Virus genome (UHGV): UHGV-0127163
Length of the DNA stretch: 19,476 nt
Source: a virus
Strand: one strand, 5' to 3'
In this document: in pieces, positions 8,601 through 19,027 of the stretch
How positions within the stretch are numbered: the stretch's first letter is position 1
Layout: each line of letters begins with the position of its first letter
Made by a program: the position numbers and the translations under genes
The notes under the pieces: generated by a model
What the model was told of the DNA's origin: nothing
The model's database searches: none
The model's input: only the letters and a program-made list of their open reading frames with translations

Positions 8601-9686
8601 TTACAGACACTTGACTACTGTTGAAACATCAGATTCTAGTGCTTCAATTTGTGCTCTATTAGCTTGGGTCGCCATACCATAGATAGTGTAACTCTTATGC
8701 TGCAGCCTACTTAAAGGGCATCCCTCATGGTTTATTATTGCTGCAAGAGTATTACCATCTTTGACATTTTGAACTCTCTCGAAAGTAGCCACATTTGTGA
8801 ACAGATGAGGATGTGTATTTAACAGGTCATCCGTGATTCTTTTGATCTCTTCTGCATGTGATTTGAATGCTTTTGCTGCATCACTTTCATTAGTTCTTGA
8901 GCGGTTTTGTACGAAAAGGTGTAGTTCAGGTAGTTCGATAAGGTTTTGCTTTGCTTCTTTGTTGAAATCTAAGAACATTTCATCTTGTTCTGACTTGTCA
9001 ATAGACACTCCATAAATAAGTTTAACAAGGTTTTTTATTCCGCGAATTGATGCAGCATCGGCAGTGCAAGGGATAATTATTCTATTTGCCGCGACTACTC
9101 CCAATTCTGTGTAGCTGGCAAAACTTGGATTACAATCAATAAAAAATGTTTTTGCTCTGTCAGAAATGTTTTTATCGGCTTCAAAAGATGCTATTAGATC
9201 TACCAGCAAAGATCGGCTTTTCTTCCATGCTTCTTTTACTGGGGATGAGCCAATGTGAGATATTAAGCGTGAACAGATATCAAGATCGACATCACCAGGA
9301 AGAATATATAAGTTCTCTGGCATTTTTGCATTAACATCATGGGCTCGTACAAAGTAAGAAGATTCATTTCCTAAACGAGACAAAGGAGATTTGCTAAAAC
9401 GCTCCTTGATATAACCTGCGATTGTAACATTTCTGTCTCGCAATTTATTTAGATTTTCTTCCCCGGTACCATTGCCACCAAGAATAATTTCTGAAACGTT
9501 TGATTGAGGGCATGAGTCAATAACCACAACATCTTGATCCGGATGAGATATAGCAAACTCAACGGCAAGATTATATGTAAGAAAAGTTTTTCCTACACCA
9601 CCTTTGTTGTTCCATACTAAATATTTTGTATTGGTGGAAATCATATCTGCTACCCCATCTGTCGCTTCAGTACGTTCATTAATCAT
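8601..9686 (-). CDS. ParA/MinD-superfamily P-loop ATPase with ~100 aa C-terminal extension; orphan gene in the cI-to-OL interval
   Basis: Deviant Walker A NNKGGVGKT, Walker A'-like VVVIDSCPQ, Walker B-like FFIDCNPSF in translation. AGGA SD 7 nt before ATG 9686. Visibly AT-richer than flanking phage DNA; preceded by a 234 bp AT-rich spacer and followed by its own terminator. Confidence 0.75.
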   Translation of the reverse strand: MINERTEATDGVADMISTNTKYLVWNNKGGVGKTFLTYNLAVEFAISHPDQDVVVIDSCPQSNVSEIILGGNGTGEENLNKLRDRNVTIAGYIKERFSKSPLSRLGNESSYFVRAHDVNAKMPENLYILPGDVDLDICSRLISHIGSSPVKEAWKKSRSLLVDLIASFEADKNISDRAKTFFIDCNPSFASYTELGVVAANRIIIPCTADAASIRGIKNLVKLIYGVSIDKSEQDEMFLDFNKEAKQNLIELPELHLFVQNRSRTNESDAAKAFKSHAEEIKRITDDLLNTHPHLFTNVATFERVQNVKDGNTLAAIINHEGCPLSRLQHKSYTIYGMATQANRAQIEALESDVSTVVKCL

Positions 9687-9920
9687 TATCGTATCCTGTT
9701 GTATAGAATTGTCTATTATTTATGTTTTATTTTGGTTTTTTTTGTGTTAGTAACGCACCCAAAGATAACATATGGTCTTTATCTTTTCTTACTTAGGGTA
9801 ACAGCTCAGTGTTAATCCATTTTTATGGACCAATGTGCCAAATAAAATTTGTATAAAGATTTTCTATCCTTATCTTTTATCATCTGTGCTCGTTTGCTTT
9901 AACGATTGCTAGATGCCTAA

Positions 9921-10661
9921 TTAAAGTCGATTATATTTAATCGACTCATGAATCAGTGCCTTACCCATAACATAAAGCTGATCTTGCGACTTCTCATCAA
10001 TGTACCATTTCTCATAGGCGGGGTTATCCGAAAGAACAGCTAGTTTGTTGCCTTGCATTTGTAGACGTTTAACATGGAAAGTCTTACCGTAAACGAAAGA
10101 GTAAACTCCATCAGTCTGGAAGTGGCGAACGGAAATGTCGACAAACAATCGATCCCCGGAAACAAGAGTTGGGGACATACTATCTCCATTTACCGTCATA
10201 ACTTTTATATCATTCTGAGAACGGTTTCCGAAAAGAGAACGGGCATGTTCAGTTGTGAACTCAATGGCGTAGAGCACATCAACATAGTCTGAAAGCATAT
10301 AGGTCCCAGGTCCTGCGCTAACGCTAAGATCCAAAACTTCTATCCTGTATACATCGGGCTTTGTTGGATTGGGGATGCTTGCCATTTCCTTACATTCCTC
10401 TCTATCTCCAACACCATATTCTAGATATGAAGCTGATACTCCAAGAGCCAACGCAAGTTTACTCATGACAGAGACACGTGGCTTCGCTGCGCCGATTGTG
10501 TATCGACGAGCCATTTCATATGTAACGCCCACAAGACTTTTGAGTTGAGTGACAGAGATTCCTTTGATTGTCATCAATTCGTTTAGTCTCTTGGCGAAAT
10601 CTGGATACTTCTGTTCTTCTACCATAGGTAGAAGATTACTCACATCGCACGCGCTAGTCAT
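9921..10661 (-). CDS. cI: CI-like prophage repressor (XRE-type HTH + LexA/S24 peptidase autocleavage domain)
   Basis: HTH segment …ISVTQLKSLVGVTYEMARRY…; C-terminal S24 signature …VNGDSMSPTL… and downstream Lys (…FHVKRLQ…). Divergent from the cro-like gene. ATG 10661 has no SD and abuts operator repeats, consistent with a leaderless pRM-type transcript; ORF-track start at 10682 is TTG. Confidence 0.8.
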   Translation of the reverse strand: MTSACDVSNLLPMVEEQKYPDFAKRLNELMTIKGISVTQLKSLVGVTYEMARRYTIGAAKPRVSVMSKLALALGVSASYLEYGVGDREECKEMASIPNPTKPDVYRIEVLDLSVSAGPGTYMLSDYVDVLYAIEFTTEHARSLFGNRSQNDIKVMTVNGDSMSPTLVSGDRLFVDISVRHFQTDGVYSFVYGKTFHVKRLQMQGNKLAVLSDNPAYEKWYIDEKSQDQLYVMGKALIHESIKYNRL

Positions 10662-10663
10662 TT

Positions 10664-10723
10664 CTATTTTAAGTAGTTGCAATTTGCTATTTTAAGTAGC
10701 ATCATCCCTCTGAATTTCAGAGG
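10664..10723. promoter_or_regulatory. OR-like operator/promoter region: two 13-bp direct repeats plus a 17-bp palindrome overlapping the cro SD
   Basis: CTATTTTAAGTAG at 10664-10676 and 10687-10699 (23 bp centre to centre); CCTCTGAA-t-TTCAGAGG at 10707-10723; cro SD AGGAGAAAGG at 10721-10730. Confidence 0.45.
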
Positions 10724-10731
10724 AGAAAGGT

Positions 10732-10971
10732 ATGTCATCTCAAAACTACACAGAGAAAGCAGTAAAGGCTGCGGGAAAATCTTTATCTGAAGTAGCCCGT
10801 CGCTTTGGTTTTAAGTCCACTCAATCCGTCGCCAATTGGGTAATTAACAATCAAGTCCCGTCAGAACGGGTTTTACAACTTTGTGAGTTGGGAAACTGGT
10901 CCGTGACCCCTCATGAACTGCGTCCTGATATTTACCCCAATCCAAATGATGGATTACCTGAGTGCTATTAA
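10732..10971 (+). CDS. cro: Cro-like HTH regulator (DicC/YdaS family)
   Basis: 79 aa, strong SD, divergent from cI; …GKSLSEVARRFGFKSTQSVANWV…VP..R…LRPDIY pattern resembles DicC/YdaS-type Cro proteins. Confidence 0.7.
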   Translation: MSSQNYTEKAVKAAGKSLSEVARRFGFKSTQSVANWVINNQVPSERVLQLCELGNWSVTPHELRPDIYPNPNDGLPECY

Positions 10972-11608
10972 AAAGTTAGCGGTTCAACTGCGTAAACGTA
11001 ACCACAGAAACGAGGAATTAACCGTGGGTAAAGAACCTGAATGGAAAGTTGATAAGCAACCAGCATGGCTGGTGGCAGCAATACGAAGAACGATTGCTGA
11101 TTTACCTCATGGCTATGAGGAAGCAGCGGAAATTCTTGGTTTGTATAAATCTGATGATATCACCCCAGCGAAAGATCAATTGCATAACAGACTGCGTAGC
11201 GGTGGGGATCAAATTTTTCCACTTGAGTGGGCCATGGTTTTACAGGATGCCAGTGGTACCAGGCATGTAACGGATGCGATAGCGCGTCGTAGTAATGGGG
11301 GGTTTGTGCCGCTGGTGGACATTGATGACATTGACAATGGTGACATTAATCAGCGGCTGATGGAGTCAATAGAATGGATTGGCAAGCATTCCCAGTACTT
11401 ACGCAAGGCAACTGCTGATGGAGTTATTGACCAGGCTGAGCGTGAGCAAATCGAAGAGAACAGCTACCAAGTAATGGCGAAGTGGCAGGAGCATTTAACA
11501 CTGTTATTTCGTGTTTTTTGTGCGCCGGAAAAGAGTAACGCCCGCGAGTGTGCAGCTCCGGGCGTCGTGGCGTCGATTGCTTCTGGTTGTGGAGAAACTA
11601 ACGCATGA
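10946..11608 (+). CDS. Hypothetical early-right protein in the cII position (possibly YdaT-like); start uncertain
   Basis: ORF overlapping the 3' end of cro in another frame; candidate starts ATG 10946 (no SD) or GTG 11024 (GAGGA SD). Family not securely recognised. Confidence 0.45.
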   Translation: MMDYLSAIKKLAVQLRKRNHRNEELTVGKEPEWKVDKQPAWLVAAIRRTIADLPHGYEEAAEILGLYKSDDITPAKDQLHNRLRSGGDQIFPLEWAMVLQDASGTRHVTDAIARRSNGGFVPLVDIDDIDNGDINQRLMESIEWIGKHSQYLRKATADGVIDQAEREQIEENSYQVMAKWQEHLTLLFRVFCAPEKSNARECAAPGVVASIASGCGETNA

Positions 11609-11933
11609 ATAGTTTAACGGCAAATAACCGTTTGTCGCAACAGCTGGTGGTCAGCGTCGCTGAACACCTGTTGTTACGGCATGAATGCAGATTACCAAAT
11701 CACCTGGCTGTAAGTAACCACAGAGAACTTTACCTGACTGTGGGGGGCGAGTTGTGCAGGAACTTAACCGCTGGTTTCGTGACGGAAGAGGGCTTTATGT
11801 CCATGTTATTCGTTGGGAGCCAGAAACACAGCGCGTTATCTATCTTCGCAAAGACTACCCGCATGAGTGCTTTAGTCCTTTGTGGAAATTCAGGCGTGAT
11901 TTTGTTGAGTGTGAAGGACCACCAGCATATTGA
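11605..11933 (+). pseudogene. Small gene split between frame 1 (11605-~11748) and frame 3 (~11748-11933) at a G6 run: frameshift mutation, homopolymer sequencing error, or -1 frameshift site
   Basis: ATG 11605 is coupled to the upstream stop (ATGA). After the G6 run (11742-11747) only frame 3 reads as protein-like (RVVQELNRWFRDGRGLYVHVIRWEPETQRVIYLRKDYPHECFSPLWKFRRDFVECEGPPAY, stop 11931-11933); frame 1 turns Ser/Ala/Gly-rich and low-complexity. Frame 3 is closed upstream by TAA 11715-11717. Confidence 0.35.
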
Positions 11934-12021
11934 TTCTGCAATTCCGGGACGTTACACTGCTCAGGCACCTTATAAAGCGGGTGCCGGGGGTCGCAGCCCG
12001 GAATTGTCAACGGCGATATAT

Positions 12022-12041
12022 GACGCGCCAGCGTCTTTTTT
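12022..12041 (+). terminator. Candidate weak intrinsic terminator (tR1-like) upstream of rha
   Basis: GACGC-gcca-GCGTC followed by TTTTTT (12036-12041); lies inside the computed 382-aa ORF, ~90 nt after the frame-3 stop. Confidence 0.4.
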
Positions 12042-12207
12042 ATCGTCCGCGCTCACGCACGCCAGAATTATGGTGGGCTGGGCAGGGGAGCCGAAAGGCT
12101 CGCCGGTCTCCGTTGACGCCGGTACTGCGAACCCTGTTCAGTCTGCCACCAGTGAGTTTCGCAGCTCCGGTGGTGGAAGTTTTCCACAGTCAACGGAGGC
12201 TGCCATC

Positions 12208-12753
12208 ATGGCTACGATCCCAACCCTCACTCAACCTGAAATTGCCATCGTTGATGGTCAGGCTGTTACTTCATCCCTGGCTGTTGCCAACTTCTTCTCC
12301 AAACGTCATGACGATGTACTGAAAAAGATCCGCACGCTTGAATGCTCTGCATCATTCACTTCCCGCAATTTTTCGGTGAGTGATTACACCGATTGCACAG
12401 GCCGCAAACTACCTTGCTATCAAATAACCCGCGACGGCTTTGCGTTTCTTGCTATGGGTTTCACGGGTAAACGTGCTGCCCAGTTCAAAGAGGCATACAT
12501 CAATGCCTTTAACCAGATGGAGAAACAGCTTTCAAATCCCTCTGTACTGAGCGACGTTGCACATAACGCCAGCGTTCTCTATTCCTACATTTCATCAATT
12601 CATCAGGTCTGGCTGCAGCAGCTTTATCCCATGTTGGCAAAAGCCGAATCCCCGCTGGCTGTAAGTCTGTATGACCGCATCAACGACGCGGCGCTACTGG
12701 CCAGTCTCATAAATTTGTCGCTGAACCCTTCAGAGGTAAGGGGGCGCAAATGA
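12208..12753 (+). CDS. rha: Rha-family phage regulatory protein
   Basis: From ATG 12208 (GGAGG SD at 12195-12199) the product begins MATIPTLTQPEIAIVDGQAVTSSLAVANFFSKRHDDVLKKIRTL…, matching the N-terminal Rha domain (…KRHDxVLrxI…). The 382-aa ORF-track version is judged an artefactual upstream extension. Confidence 0.65.
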   Translation: MATIPTLTQPEIAIVDGQAVTSSLAVANFFSKRHDDVLKKIRTLECSASFTSRNFSVSDYTDCTGRKLPCYQITRDGFAFLAMGFTGKRAAQFKEAYINAFNQMEKQLSNPSVLSDVAHNASVLYSYISSIHQVWLQQLYPMLAKAESPLAVSLYDRINDAALLASLINLSLNPSEVRGRK

Positions 12754-12974
12754 TCCGGAATATTTTCAAACGGTTTACCAATCAGACTTTCCGTTGTCCT
12801 CGTCCTGGTCAGTGGTACACCACGCCTGCAGGGCATGTTCTACGTGTCAGCCTGGTTGACCGTGAATGTCAGAAGGTGATTTGTGAACCGCTGGGCCGTA
12901 ATTACCGCATCAGTATGCCGCTTATAGCCTTTTGCTCCGGAAAAATGTTTAAGCGTCTGGGAGGTGTGGCGTGA
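12750..12974 (+). CDS. Hypothetical small phage protein (74 aa)
   Basis: ATGA start/stop overlap with rha; no domain recognised. Confidence 0.5.
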   Translation: MIRNIFKRFTNQTFRCPRPGQWYTTPAGHVLRVSLVDRECQKVICEPLGRNYRISMPLIAFCSGKMFKRLGGVA

Positions 12975-13270
12975 ACTGTTTTCAGTTTGTGTGCGGATGT
13001 GCTTTCGATAACCCGATTCAGCGCCTGATTATGTTGCGCGTTTTGATGTCGGGTTCTTCAGACGGTGAAGGCGAGAGAGTTATTGATCATCAGGTGCTTG
13101 CTGATTTCTGCTGTTGTTCTAAGCAAGCGATATTCAGGGAAACCCTGGCACTGGAAAGAGCTGGTTATCTTCATATCCGAAAAATTGCAACGCTTACTAT
13201 TGATGCAAAAGCCAGACTACAACCTGCGCGTGGCTACACAATTCTCATGCTGCGGAAGGAGGTTGTATGA
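12971..13270 (+). CDS. Hypothetical phage protein (99 aa), GTG start
   Basis: GTG 12971 after GGAGG SD, GTGA overlap with upstream stop; no domain recognised. Confidence 0.5.
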   Translation: MNCFQFVCGCAFDNPIQRLIMLRVLMSGSSDGEGERVIDHQVLADFCCCSKQAIFRETLALERAGYLHIRKIATLTIDAKARLQPARGYTILMLRKEVV

Positions 13271-14250
13271 GCCGTTACGCCCCCACACCGGAAGTTATGG
13301 CTATTGGTCAAATTAATATTTCCGGCAATGTTACACCTGCGACCTGGTGGAAATATATTCGACTACCCAGTGGGCGTCCGGATGCGACGGCTATCGCTCT
13401 GCTTTCAGAGATCGTTTACTGGTACCGCCCGACAGAGGTCAGGGATGAGCACACCGGAGCGTTGCTGGGATATCGCAAGCGTTTTCAGGGCGACAAACTG
13501 CAAAGAAGCTACCAGGCGTTTGCTGAGCAGTTTGGTTTCGGGAAAAGGGAAACCGCAGATGCGCTGAAGCGTCTGCGCGATGCAGGGTTTATTACTCTGG
13601 ATTTACGCACGGTGGAAATGCTCGATGGGGTGAAATGCAGCAATATTTTGTTTGTCGGGATCAACCCACAGGCAATTGCGGCCATCACCACACCTTCTTC
13701 TGTTTCGCCAGAAAGTAACAGCAATAATGCAATCAGCGATACAGCTATTACGTTAAAACGGAACACCCCCCGACGTCATAACGGAACAGGGGATACGCCG
13801 AATGTTGATACAAATACAGAGATTACTACAGAGATTACAACGGAGACTAAAAACACTATTGATGCATCCGCTGACGCGTCTGCGCCAGCGCGTTCTGCCC
13901 GACAGGAATATTCACCGGAATTTGAACAGGCCTGGCAGGAATATCCCAAACGTGCTGGTGGCAATTCAAAATCAGCAGCCTTCAAAGCCTGGAAAGCCCG
14001 TTTGAACGAGGGGGTAAACCCCGAAACCATGCTGGAAGGTGTGAAACGCTACGCGGGCTGGGTATCTGCGATGGGCAATAGCGGCACACAATTTGTGAAA
14101 CAGGCTGTCACGTTCTTTGGTCCGGATCGTCATTTCGAAGAATCCTGGGAAGTTCCTGCGGTATCTGCAGCCAGACGCGAGGACCCGTACTTCAAAGCCA
14201 GTTACGACAACGTGGACTACAGCCAGATCCCGACAGGATTCAGGGGGTGA
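13267..14250 (+). CDS. DnaT-like primosomal/replication protein
   Basis: GGAGG SD before ATG 13267. N-terminus (MSRYAPTPEVMAIG…) and C-terminal end (…YSQIPTGFRG) resemble E. coli DnaT (…SQIPPGFRG) as recalled; central Thr/Glu-rich repetitive linker. Confidence 0.6.
   Translation: MSRYAPTPEVMAIGQINISGNVTPATWWKYIRLPSGRPDATAIALLSEIVYWYRPTEVRDEHTGALLGYRKRFQGDKLQRSYQAFAEQFGFGKRETADALKRLRDAGFITLDLRTVEMLDGVKCSNILFVGINPQAIAAITTPSSVSPESNSNNAISDTAITLKRNTPRRHNGTGDTPNVDTNTEITTEITTETKNTIDASADASAPARSARQEYSPEFEQAWQEYPKRAGGNSKSAAFKAWKARLNEGVNPETMLEGVKRYAGWVSAMGNSGTQFVKQAVTFFGPDRHFEESWEVPAVSAARREDPYFKASYDNVDYSQIPTGFRG
13815..13850 (+). repeat. Three tandem 12-bp units inside the DnaT-like gene (iteron-like)
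   Basis: ACAGAGATTACT / ACAGAGATTACA / ACGGAGACTAAA; encodes …TEITTEITTETKNT…. Confidence 0.5.
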
Positions 14251-14252
14251 TC

Positions 14253-14741
14253 ATGAGTCTGATGAACGATGTACAGAAATTCATTGAAGCCCATCCGGGG
14301 TGTACTTCAGGTGACATTGCGGATGCTTTTGCTGGTTACTCACGACAGTGCGTTCTGCAGTCAGCAAGCAAGTTACGTCAGAGTGGCCGTGTGGCTCACT
14401 GTTGTGAAGGGAAAACACGCAGACATTTCCCACACCAGGCTGAGATATCGCAGGAGGAGAAACTGCAACCTGTTCTTGAAACCATACCTGTGCGCAATTT
14501 CTATGTCGGCACTAACGATCCCCGGGTGATTTTGTGCCTGACCCGCCAGGCGGAAGAACTGGAGTCCAGGGGCTTATACCGTCGTGCTGCAACCGTGTGG
14601 ATGGCGGCATTCCGTGAAAGCCACTCCCAGCCAGAACGAAACAATTTTCTGGCGCGTCGTGAGCGGTGCTTACGGAAAAGCAGAAAGCGCGCTGTAGCGG
14701 GTGATGAGTGGTATCTGTCAGGGAATTACGTGGGGGCTTAA
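14253..14741 (+). CDS. Hypothetical regulator; C-terminal motif resembles PerC/Pch-family activators (uncertain)
   Basis: GGGGG SD before ATG 14253 (GTG 14247 also possible). Motif …AEELESRGLYRRAATVWMAA… resembles the PerC-family signature as recalled; the N-terminal ~60 aa may be a winged helix. Not verified. Confidence 0.4.
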   Translation: MSLMNDVQKFIEAHPGCTSGDIADAFAGYSRQCVLQSASKLRQSGRVAHCCEGKTRRHFPHQAEISQEEKLQPVLETIPVRNFYVGTNDPRVILCLTRQAEELESRGLYRRAATVWMAAFRESHSQPERNNFLARRERCLRKSRKRAVAGDEWYLSGNYVGA

Positions 14742-18617: not shown

Positions 18618-18634
18618 TTTTGTGGAGAAAGTTG

Positions 18635-19027
18635 ATGCGTGATATTCAGATGGTTCTCGAACGCTGGGGGGCATGGGCGGCAAGTGGTAACGCCGGGGTG
18701 GACTATTCTCCGATAGCTGCTGGATTTAAAGGCCTTTTACCATCCACCGCTAAACCTCGCCCGGCCTGCAGCGATGATGACGGCCTTATCATCGAAAACT
18801 GCCTTACGCGCCTGAAGAAGAAAAAACCGGACGAGTATTCGCTGCTGGTAGCTCATTATCTGCTGCGCATATCAAAAAGGCAGATTGCCAGAACAAGAAA
18901 GAAGAGCGAAAAGGCAATACGAATTGAGATGCAGATTGCTGAAGGATTTATTGACGGATGTCTGTCGATGCTGGGTGTAAGGCTGGAGATGGACGACTGG
19001 CTGCCCAAAAAAGTAAAAAATGATTAG
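18635..19027 (+). CDS. Q: Late-gene antiterminator Q-like protein
   Basis: 130 aa from ATG 18635 (GGAGA SD); N-terminus MRDIQMVLERWGAWAA… resembles Q proteins of the phage-82/933W group as recalled; immediately followed by a promoter-proximal terminator (tR' arrangement). Confidence 0.6.
   Translation: MRDIQMVLERWGAWAASGNAGVDYSPIAAGFKGLLPSTAKPRPACSDDDGLIIENCLTRLKKKKPDEYSLLVAHYLLRISKRQIARTRKKSEKAIRIEMQIAEGFIDGCLSMLGVRLEMDDWLPKKVKND

Follow-up and report, generated by a model that had tools for sequence, protein, structure and literature searches.

A probable isrK–C4 RNA control module upstream of the antirepressor-like rha gene in a lambdoid Escherichia coli prophage

The stretch of UHGV virus genome UHGV-0127163 considered here (the window, 19,476 nucleotides) belongs to a lambdoid prophage of Escherichia coli related to mEp460, ST64B, cdtI, and several Stx phages. 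The subject of this work is the interval 11930–12207 on its plus strand, which lies directly 5' of a gene of the rha family and contains two small RNAs, isrK and C4. The gene order is a cI-like repressor gene (minus strand), a cro-like gene, the cII-like gene ymfL, a DUF4222 gene, the two RNAs, and the Rha-family gene. The stop codon of rha overlaps the next open reading frame (ORF) of 74 aa, which is followed by replication initiators (ORFs at 12971–14250), PerC, and, further on, a Q-like antiterminator gene. The DUF4222 gene (11754–11933, plus strand, 59 aa; Pfam PF13973, E = 9.4e-14; phrog_1343), found in the same place in RefSeq, is the last conventional gene 5' of the RNA module, and its stop codon lies inside the −35 hexamer of a putative promoter. 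The rha gene (12208–12753, plus strand, 181 aa from its AUG) matches Pfam Phage_pRha (E = 1.5e-30), TIGR02681, and phrog_821, 518, 373, and 63, the PHROG matches being labelled transcriptional regulator and anti-repressor. By these family matches, the gene under control would be a Rha-family, antirepressor-like gene. A first-pass annotation of the stretch had correctly placed the TGA that closes the ORF 11754–11933 (11931–11933) and the start signals of rha (GGAGG, 12195–12199; ATG, 12208–12210), and its description of the interval as a regulatory point directly 5' of rha agrees with what follows.

A scan of the whole window with Rfam at gathering thresholds returned exactly two matches, isrK and C4, and both lie inside the studied interval. 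The first is an IsrK-type small RNA at 11965–12041 on the plus strand (RF01394, 58.7 bits at a gathering threshold of 50, model positions 1–77 of 77), the equivalent of seqA in P4 and of a1b1 in P1. For comparison, 22 phage loci with 68–99% identity to the interval were used, together with P4 and Gifsy-1; loci are given by number only where they have to be told apart. Hairpin 1 of IsrK (11965–11984) is predicted by folding and shows compensatory changes in the 21-locus alignment, and hairpin 2 (11985–12000), also predicted by folding, carries in its loop the decoy site a1, TCGCAG (11991–11996), a 6-nt complement of the C4 segment a'. The decoy site b1, GTCAACGG (12006–12013), is an 8-nt complement of the C4 segment b'. 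The 3' end of isrK is an intrinsic terminator, the hairpin GACGC-GCCA-GCGTC followed by TTTTTT at 12022–12041, exactly where it had been noticed earlier. Its hairpin energy is −7.1 kcal/mol, it is the top terminator-like site on the plus strand in a scan of 9500–14500, and both a covarying stem and the T-run are kept in all 21 aligned loci. The c4-a1b1 model (RF03163) matches 11952–12004 weakly, with 17.1 bits against a threshold of 46.7, and is above the threshold in five relatives.

A putative promoter, TTGATT-17 nt-TACACT, can be read from the sequence at 11930–11958 (plus strand), ending 6 nt before the start of the isrK model. The site is conserved in loci of the window type, and elsewhere, including Gifsy-1, TTGACN-17/18-TATAYT stands at the same distance. 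The promoter PisrK of Gifsy-1 has been shown by experiment (PMC4825925); by this correspondence, 11930–11958 is a putative promoter.

The second match is a C4-type antisense RNA, equivalent to the CI RNA of P4 and STnc1160 of Salmonella, at 12066–12153 on the plus strand (RF01695, 78.8 bits at a gathering threshold of 45, model positions 1–87 of 87, E = 2.8e-14). The score with our own covariance model R1 is 89.3 bits. Between the terminator and this RNA lies a spacer (12042–12065, plus strand) whose sequence is not conserved among relatives. The outer stem of C4, seen both in the Rfam alignment and in the fold, is formed by 12071–12087 with 12132–12148. Inside it are helix 2, the first inner hairpin of the Rfam alignment (12088–12101), helix 3 (12102–12123), in whose loop lies b', CTCCGTTGAC (12108–12117), and the unpaired junction a', CTGCGAA (12125–12131). 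The outer stem is directly followed by CCA (12149–12151), and an AUG at the 5' end of C4 (12070) is conserved in nearly all loci. Folded alone, the C4 stretch takes the family structure, with a minimum free energy of −47.8 kcal/mol and z = −4.3. Compensatory changes were found in 15 of the 27 helix pairs, and 98.9% of the alignment cells are paired, versus 34–48% when the partner strand is slid. The C4 RNA of P1 is cut out of its transcript by RNase P; the sequence prerequisite for processing of this type, a stem and then CCA at 12149–12151, is visible here. A role of the CCA in RNase P cleavage was reportedly described by Hartmann et al. in 1995.

Helix 2 is the hairpin GAGCC-GAAA-GGCTC (−7.9 kcal/mol), which had been located exactly in the first-pass annotation and compared there with boxB of lambda. 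The covariance check proposed with that comparison was run across the related phages: all five stem pairs covary, and the loop is GAAA, UUCG, GCAA, or GAGA. Because the loop varies between classes while the stem covaries, the loop caps the structure and is not one bound by N; the position of the hairpin stands, its role as boxB does not.

The sites complementary to a' and b' are repeated downstream of C4 on the plus strand. The target a2, TTCGCAG (12158–12164), is an exact 7-nt complement of a'. The target b2 (12189–12199) consists of GTCAACGGAG at 12189–12198, an exact 10-nt complement of b', plus G12199 via a G–U pair. This target overlaps the Shine–Dalgarno sequence of rha, and with G12199 included the whole GGAGG is covered. 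Between a2 and b2 lies the hairpin GTGGAA-GTT-TTCCAC (−5.0 kcal/mol), replaced in most relatives by a hairpin of different sequence. This palindrome, too, had been seen before, at 12171–12185; it is real, its true position being 12173–12187, 2 nt to the right. The terminator hairpin, the position of the GAAA hairpin, and the spacer hairpin between a2 and b2 are more than chance, because they recur in relatives with different sequences. As for further C4 targets in the window, GTCAACGG is present at b1 and b2 only, and the next-best duplexes are non-specific.

The complementarity of the three parts is maintained by covariation. The 21 loci have 17 distinct sequences of the b' loop and 11 of the a' junction, each with its own complement at a fixed place: a1 at position 26 of isrK, a2 4–9 nt after C4, and b2 31–38 nt after C4, reaching into the Shine–Dalgarno sequence. 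An exact 7-nt complement of a' stands 4–9 nt past C4 in 21 of 21 loci. For b2, the cognate match has a mean length of 8.6 nt, compared with 4.0 nt for non-cognate combinations in the same loci, and over all sites the cognate means are 7.0–8.6 nt and the non-cognate ones 3.3–4.0 nt. In the a1–a' helix, taken in anchor-defined columns, 99% of cells are paired and six of the seven pairs covary; none of 500 shuffles reaches the observed score, and no slid register comes close.

When comparing the near-identical modules of phages PA8 (L010) and P14437 (L012), a change of a' from GTGAGAA to GTAGCAA can be noted, with a1 and a2 changed to match. This is a switch of specificity such as distinguishes P1 from P7. 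A further conserved element between a2 and b2 (12167–12179 in the window) is the GGTGGTG(A) box, whose complement is the 3' strand of the outer stem of C4. The 5' arm of the spacer hairpin belongs to this box, and in L010/L012, L014, and L005 the two complementary sequences covary. This suggests an alternative fold of the unprocessed read-through transcript.

The arrangement is widespread. In all 20 loci scanned, isrK is followed 22–35 nt later by C4 on the same strand, and the immunity region of P4 contains this pair as well. The gene downstream of the pair in the scanned loci is of the Ant, Rha, BRO-N, or Icd type. When Rha was used as the query, about 35 genomes were found to carry C4 at 50–57 nt 5' of a rha homologue, with further matched cassettes; they belong to many gammaproteobacterial genera, among them Citrobacter, Edwardsiella, Aeromonas, Vibrio, Endozoicomonas, and Marinomonas. 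In Symbiopectobacterium purcellii, the whole C4–Rha unit is present twice in tandem (L036, 406–493 and 1359–1446), and the start of the second long ORF and the stop codon of the first Rha overlap.

We interpret 11930–12207 as an RNA control module of the P1/P7 immI, P4 immunity, and Gifsy-1 isrK type, placed before an antirepressor-like rha, and give this reading a probability of about 85%. The two RNA families, their folds, the complementarities, the three-way covariation, and the overlap with the ribosome-binding site are observed directly. The kind of system is already known and experimentally characterised, and this copy is an unannotated member of it. Control would then be exerted by antisense pairing with the ribosome-binding site of rha and not by N. 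The promoter at about 11930–11958 would start a transcript at about 11965, and part of the transcription would stop at 12022–12041, giving an IsrK-like RNA of about 77 nt with the decoys a1 and b1. Read-through transcripts would contain a tRNA-like C4 RNA of about 78 nt (stem 12071–12148, then CCA). Its b' (12108–12117) and a' (12125–12131) would pair with b2 (12189–12199) and a2 (12158–12164) in the same or in other transcripts. Because the pairing with b2 covers the Shine–Dalgarno sequence, translation of rha would be blocked. By analogy with P1 and P4, the untranslated message would be open to Rho-dependent termination, and the replication genes after rha would be held down. The short IsrK RNA, competing for a' and b', could relieve the repression.

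Several points weigh against this interpretation. Expression, processing, repression, the decoy role, and Rho polarity are carried over by homology, the locus itself being known from its sequence alone. The putative promoter agrees with the consensus at 8 of 12 positions, below the scan cut-off of 9/12, and was not called by the scan. Most relatives have stronger decoys than a1 (6 nt) and b1 (8 nt) of the window. Full-length cofolding brings a net gain over the separate folds of just −1.3 kcal/mol with the target and −3.4 kcal/mol with IsrK, in a calculation that omits loop–loop kissing, and we see the small gain as a limitation of the model. The antirepressor activity of Rha is putative, and its pairwise similarity to AnrP of Gifsy-1 is not significant (E = 2.3). 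The conserved open frame that crosses the module, described below, makes a simple picture of a non-coding leader incomplete. Finally, the model of the Gifsy-1 authors is not plain Shine–Dalgarno masking; it involves translation of an upstream ORF from the AUG homologous to 12070 (PMC4825925).

The closest classical parallel is the immI region of P1 and P7, in which, as far as the summary in PMC8201110 presents it, the c4 antisense RNA and the a1/b1 and a2/b2 sites control icd-ant (Citron & Schuster 1990). The window shares with it the family RF01695, the three-helix fold with a' and b' single-stranded, the target copies upstream and downstream on the same strand, the downstream copy being on the ribosome-binding site, and a controlled gene of the antirepressor type. 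The a/b sequences set the specificity, as in the pair L010/L012; P1 and P7 themselves differ essentially in specificity sequences of this type. Unlike immI, the window has no icd, and b2 lies directly on the Shine–Dalgarno sequence of a rha-family gene. It also has an intrinsic terminator after a1/b1, so that a separate small RNA is formed in prediction. Furthermore, its module stands in the early rightward operon of a lambdoid prophage, between cII-like and replication genes, and the whole of it is inside a conserved open frame.

Both Rfam families recur in the immunity region of P4 (seqA, CI RNA, seqC), with order and strand unchanged, and there, too, the module precedes replication genes. 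The a' of P4, TTCTCAC, and the seqA loop GTGAGAA fit the same covariation. Rho polarity is part of the control in both P1 and P4. In the works of Forti et al. (2002) and Sabbattini et al. (1995), to the extent that they are cited in PMC3632133, P4 immunity is premature transcription termination of the replication operon. The difference is that the most direct reading of the window is masking of the rha Shine–Dalgarno sequence, an effect on the replication genes being probable by homology only. Barquist et al. (PMC3632133) equated IsrK–C4 with seqA–CI of P4 and stated that lambdoid prophages carry such systems.

The best-studied relative is isrK-orf45(STnc1160)-anrP of Gifsy-1. In this prophage, the isrK promoter drives an antirepressor-like gene by partial read-through of the terminator, and the resulting mRNA is silent at the level of translation (Hershko-Shalev et al. 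2016, PMC4825925). When a' is mutated, translation of anrP goes up 100–200 fold, and IsrK in trans activates it, whereas a1-mutant IsrK does not; a stable processed RNA, STnc1160, is present downstream of IsrK, and the authors drew the analogy to seqA/CI of P4 (PMC4825925). We mapped the published numbering onto the elements described here. G28 and G31 fall in a1 (TTGGCGT, 26–32) and C159 and C162 in a' (ACGCCAA, 158–164), so that the mutations G28A and G31A hit a1 and their compensatory partners C162U and C159U hit a'; A107 is the AUG at the 5' end of C4, and G114/C175 lie in the C4 outer stem. The window shares with Gifsy-1 an IsrK with a promoter of its own and a leaky terminator (promoter and leakiness being putative here), the a1–a' pairing, which the compensatory mutations have proven in Gifsy-1, a C4-like RNA downstream, the AUG at the C4 5' end, and a b2 over the Shine–Dalgarno sequence of an antirepressor-like gene. 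The differences are that the Gifsy-1 module lies downstream of a Q gene and that of the window in the early operon, that AnrP and the window Rha have no pairwise similarity, and that orf45 stops at the anrP start, whereas the frame of the window is fused to rha and open far upstream.

The position between early regulatory and replication genes, with a terminator to be passed, is also that of nutR–tR1 of lambda, and this was the arrangement proposed in the first-pass annotation: boxA CGCTCA and a boxB-like GAAA hairpin would load an N-like antiterminator and allow read-through into the delayed-early genes. The terminator does separate the cro- and cII-like genes from rha and the replication genes, and, with its 5-bp stem and GAAA loop, the hairpin looks superficially like boxB. 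Even so, we regard a nut site here as practically negligible in probability, and the comparative data contradict it. CGCTCA is indeed at 12050–12055, but it occurs at chance frequency (four copies on the plus strand of the window, about 4.8 expected for a random hexamer, 19476/4096), is absent from the spacer of the relatives, and lies past the terminator, with 32 nt between it and the hairpin that follows; the boxA–boxB spacer of lambda is about 8 nt. Of the boxA consensus (CGCTCTTA-like), the interval holds CGCTCA only, CGCTCTT being absent. As helix 2 of C4, which is matched over its full length, the hairpin has a covarying stem and a loop of the GNRA or UUCG class. Pfam and PHROG scans of the window ORFs, in which small ORFs were not covered exhaustively, gave no match to an N-like family, the only antiterminator-type match being the Q-like protein at 18620–19027. 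The window differs from nutR–tR1: a boxA is lacking, the boxB-like loop is not conserved, no N gene came up in the scans, and the hairpin belongs to another, well-defined RNA. Its terminator is intrinsic, while tR1 of lambda is Rho-dependent. Three other candidates were rejected: RNA antitermination of the HK022 put type, since both structured elements are fully explained by isrK and C4 and neither Rfam nor any other evidence speaks for it; a minus-strand small RNA or peptide (ORF 12068–12193), which nothing supports, all Rfam matches being on the plus strand; and a riboswitch or tRNA-like gene, for which there is no Rfam match down to E = 10. A rival that keeps both RNAs is positive control as proposed for Gifsy-1, in which the read-through transcript is silent and IsrK in trans exposes the AUG at 12070, giving a 227-aa form of Rha. 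This AUG, conserved in nearly all loci, corresponds to A107 of Gifsy-1 orf45; orf45 ends by an ATGA overlap with anrP, the window frame from 12070 runs into rha, and positive control has experimental support in Salmonella (PMC4825925). On the other side, there is no Shine–Dalgarno-like sequence before 12070, the AUG is at the base of the very stable C4 stem, and the upstream ORF from the C4 AUG is only 3–64 aa long and, in most other families, has no link to the gene start. In the Salmonella double mutants, a1–a' pairing is restored and repression is not, which fits repression by C4 and a2 at least as well. We consider positive control through this AUG rather unlikely for the window.

The interval also lies in a 382-aa open frame (11605–12753, plus strand), which starts by an ATGA overlap with the ymfL stop codon and runs in frame into rha, spanning the DUF4222 gene (in another frame), the promoter, IsrK, the terminator, C4, and a2/b2. 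That it, or a shorter Ash–Rha form, is an ordinary two-domain protein and the RNA matches are incidental has something in its favour. Phage_ASH (PF10554) matches residues 117–212 with 64.5 bits (gathering threshold 26, E = 1.4e-17), GenBank and RefSeq annotate long coding sequences (CDSs) across the interval, the frame is free of stops in all 20 enterobacterial rha-type loci, and its start overlaps the preceding stop in several different contexts. The matched residues correspond to 11953–12240, that is, to the RNA module. Substitutions in 11754–11933 (six relatives) fall on the third codon positions of DUF4222, giving [12,56,17] in the frame of the long ORF; this stretch is thus constrained in the other frame. 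An excess at third positions is lacking in isrK [45,47,31], C4 [78,79,91], and a2b2 [51,47,38], whereas rha shows the expected excess. The spacer peptide differs at four of six residues between two loci with identical a/b cassettes, and the strong RNA covariation is not explained by coding. For the Ash part, AlphaFold2 gave a pLDDT of 45.5 and a pTM of 0.13, which is weak evidence with an alignment of 12 sequences, and a search for protein homologues of this stretch yielded 16 E. coli fragments, mostly partial. Phage_ASH still matches isrK–C4 translations with one to four stop codons inside the match (in L014, 36.7 bits with a stop inside; in L020, four stops). Its match in P4 lies over the CI RNA, on the outdated 'cI gene product' ORF (L023 8330–8521, minus strand), and the P4 epsilon protein matches PF25738, not Phage_ASH. 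Because the P4 match lies over the CI RNA and translations containing stops are matched as well, Phage_ASH appears to model the conceptual translation of the isrK–C4/CI RNA locus and not a protein domain. A two-domain protein is accordingly very improbable. The earlier view that the 382-aa ORF is not an ordinary single protein holds, given the DUF4222 frame and the missing codon periodicity in 11934–12207; the stop-free frame kept in relatives qualifies the idea that the stretch is untranslated.

The openness of this frame itself calls for an explanation. In 11605–11964, the rha frame has no stops, compared with 11 and 6 in the other two frames. No rha-frame stop occurs from the C4 AUG to the rha AUG in 20 of 20 enterobacterial rha-type loci; in 12 loci of equal length, this part has 0 stops in the rha frame versus 18 and 31 in the others. 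A column shuffle, which ignores phylogeny and RNA pairing constraints in 20 loci that share ancestry, expects 9.3 stops from C4 to rha and 16 from isrK to rha, and none of 2000 shuffles gives zero. The frame is open through isrK as well in 17 of the 20 loci. The ORF start overlaps the preceding stop by 4 nt after five kinds of upstream gene: YmfL, DUF4222, a helicase-domain protein, another Ash–Rha copy, and a 63-aa ORF. In Edwardsiella and Izhakiella, it stays open over 640–970 nt antisense to toxin–antitoxin genes, with 0 stops versus 10–23 in the other frames; the inserts between DUF4222 and isrK (L029 669–1185 and L033 513–1146, minus strand) encode BrnT/BrnA and TumE plus a helix-turn-helix (HTH) protein. 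The long N-terminal parts of the resulting 479–584-aa ORFs were rejected as real domains, being antisense to these BrnT/BrnA and TumE/HTH genes. In the window, the first 49 codons (11605–11753, from the ymfL stop to DUF4222) have no PHROG match and no codon periodicity among relatives.

The simplest reading, and a tentative hypothesis only, is that the open frame has been selected without selection on the peptide, i.e., for ribosome transit. As an addition to the RNA control module, ribosomes coupled from ymfL might cross IsrK, the terminator, and C4 on transcripts from the early promoter and enter rha. Translating ribosomes would prevent the folds and suppress termination and Rho polarity, so that the module would be bypassed in lytic growth. 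Transcripts from the internal promoter would have no upstream start codon; on them, the RNAs would fold, and C4 would shut rha. Besides the stop counts, the upstream overlaps, and the antisense corridor, this addition draws on the absence of detectable amino-acid constraint by codon periodicity and AlphaFold2. The nin-region loci of Stx phages are without the corridor, and Stx phages with such loci use N. The corridor is likewise lacking in Uetakevirus, APSE-type, Marinomonas, and Aeromonas loci. In Gifsy-1, anrP translation needs translation from the homologous AUG (PMC4825925). Against ribosome transit stand the purely comparative nature of the evidence, with loci of shared ancestry and a shuffle blind to phylogeny and RNA pairing, the rha loci of Marinomonas, Aeromonas, and Endozoicomonas that have C4 and lack the corridor, the C4 AUG out of frame in 3 of 20 loci, a few database variants frameshifted before rha, and the AUG at 11605, a predicted start. 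We consider transit less likely than not, and the same holds for its extension: in N-less lambdoid prophages of this type, the module might be embedded in a transit frame, with transcripts of the internal promoter shutting off the replication genes together with rha, promoter choice, read via translation, replacing N/nut, and the 'Ash domain' arising as a by-product. The frameshifted variants are 'ash family' proteins (P0001, P0007, P0015) with the shift inside C4 or just before the rha AUG and the ending ...HGYDPNPHST; they are either natural corridor-breaking variants or sequencing errors.

The analysis has practical consequences for annotation. In RefSeq, a 'Rha family' CDS starts at 11863 (L001 2836–3726, window 11863–12753). 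Rha CDSs in GenBank and RefSeq start at 11863 or 11605 (L002 2584–3735) and cross both RNAs, with no non-coding RNA feature; gp41 of mEp460 (383 aa) and sb41 of ST64B (385 aa) are entered as proteins. The sole record in which isrK, C4, a', and b' are marked is that of APSE-8 (L003). Since the region is annotated as protein ('Rha', 'antirepressor', 'ash family protein'), the regulator of rha is invisible to users of these records. The 'Rha/Ash' proteins of Stx phages have been listed as two-domain proteins of unknown function (PMC8951638), and PF10554 has been used as a marker for P4 epsilon (PMC8628076). A 1.3-kb stretch of the locus is matched in 2158 of 5426 complete E. coli genomes. The a/b cassettes define immunity-like specificities, and cross-talk between prophages in one host could depend on them. 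As an element, the module is ordinary, being found by two curated Rfam models; of more interest are the Ash artefact and the unexplained stop-free frame, which, if ribosome transit were true, would explain independently of N how early transcription gets through the terminator built into its path. One more RNA was found among the relatives: in P14437 (L012 2223–2306), sRNA-Xcc1 (RF02221, 79.6 bits, gathering-level) lies about 130 nt downstream of the rha-like gene.

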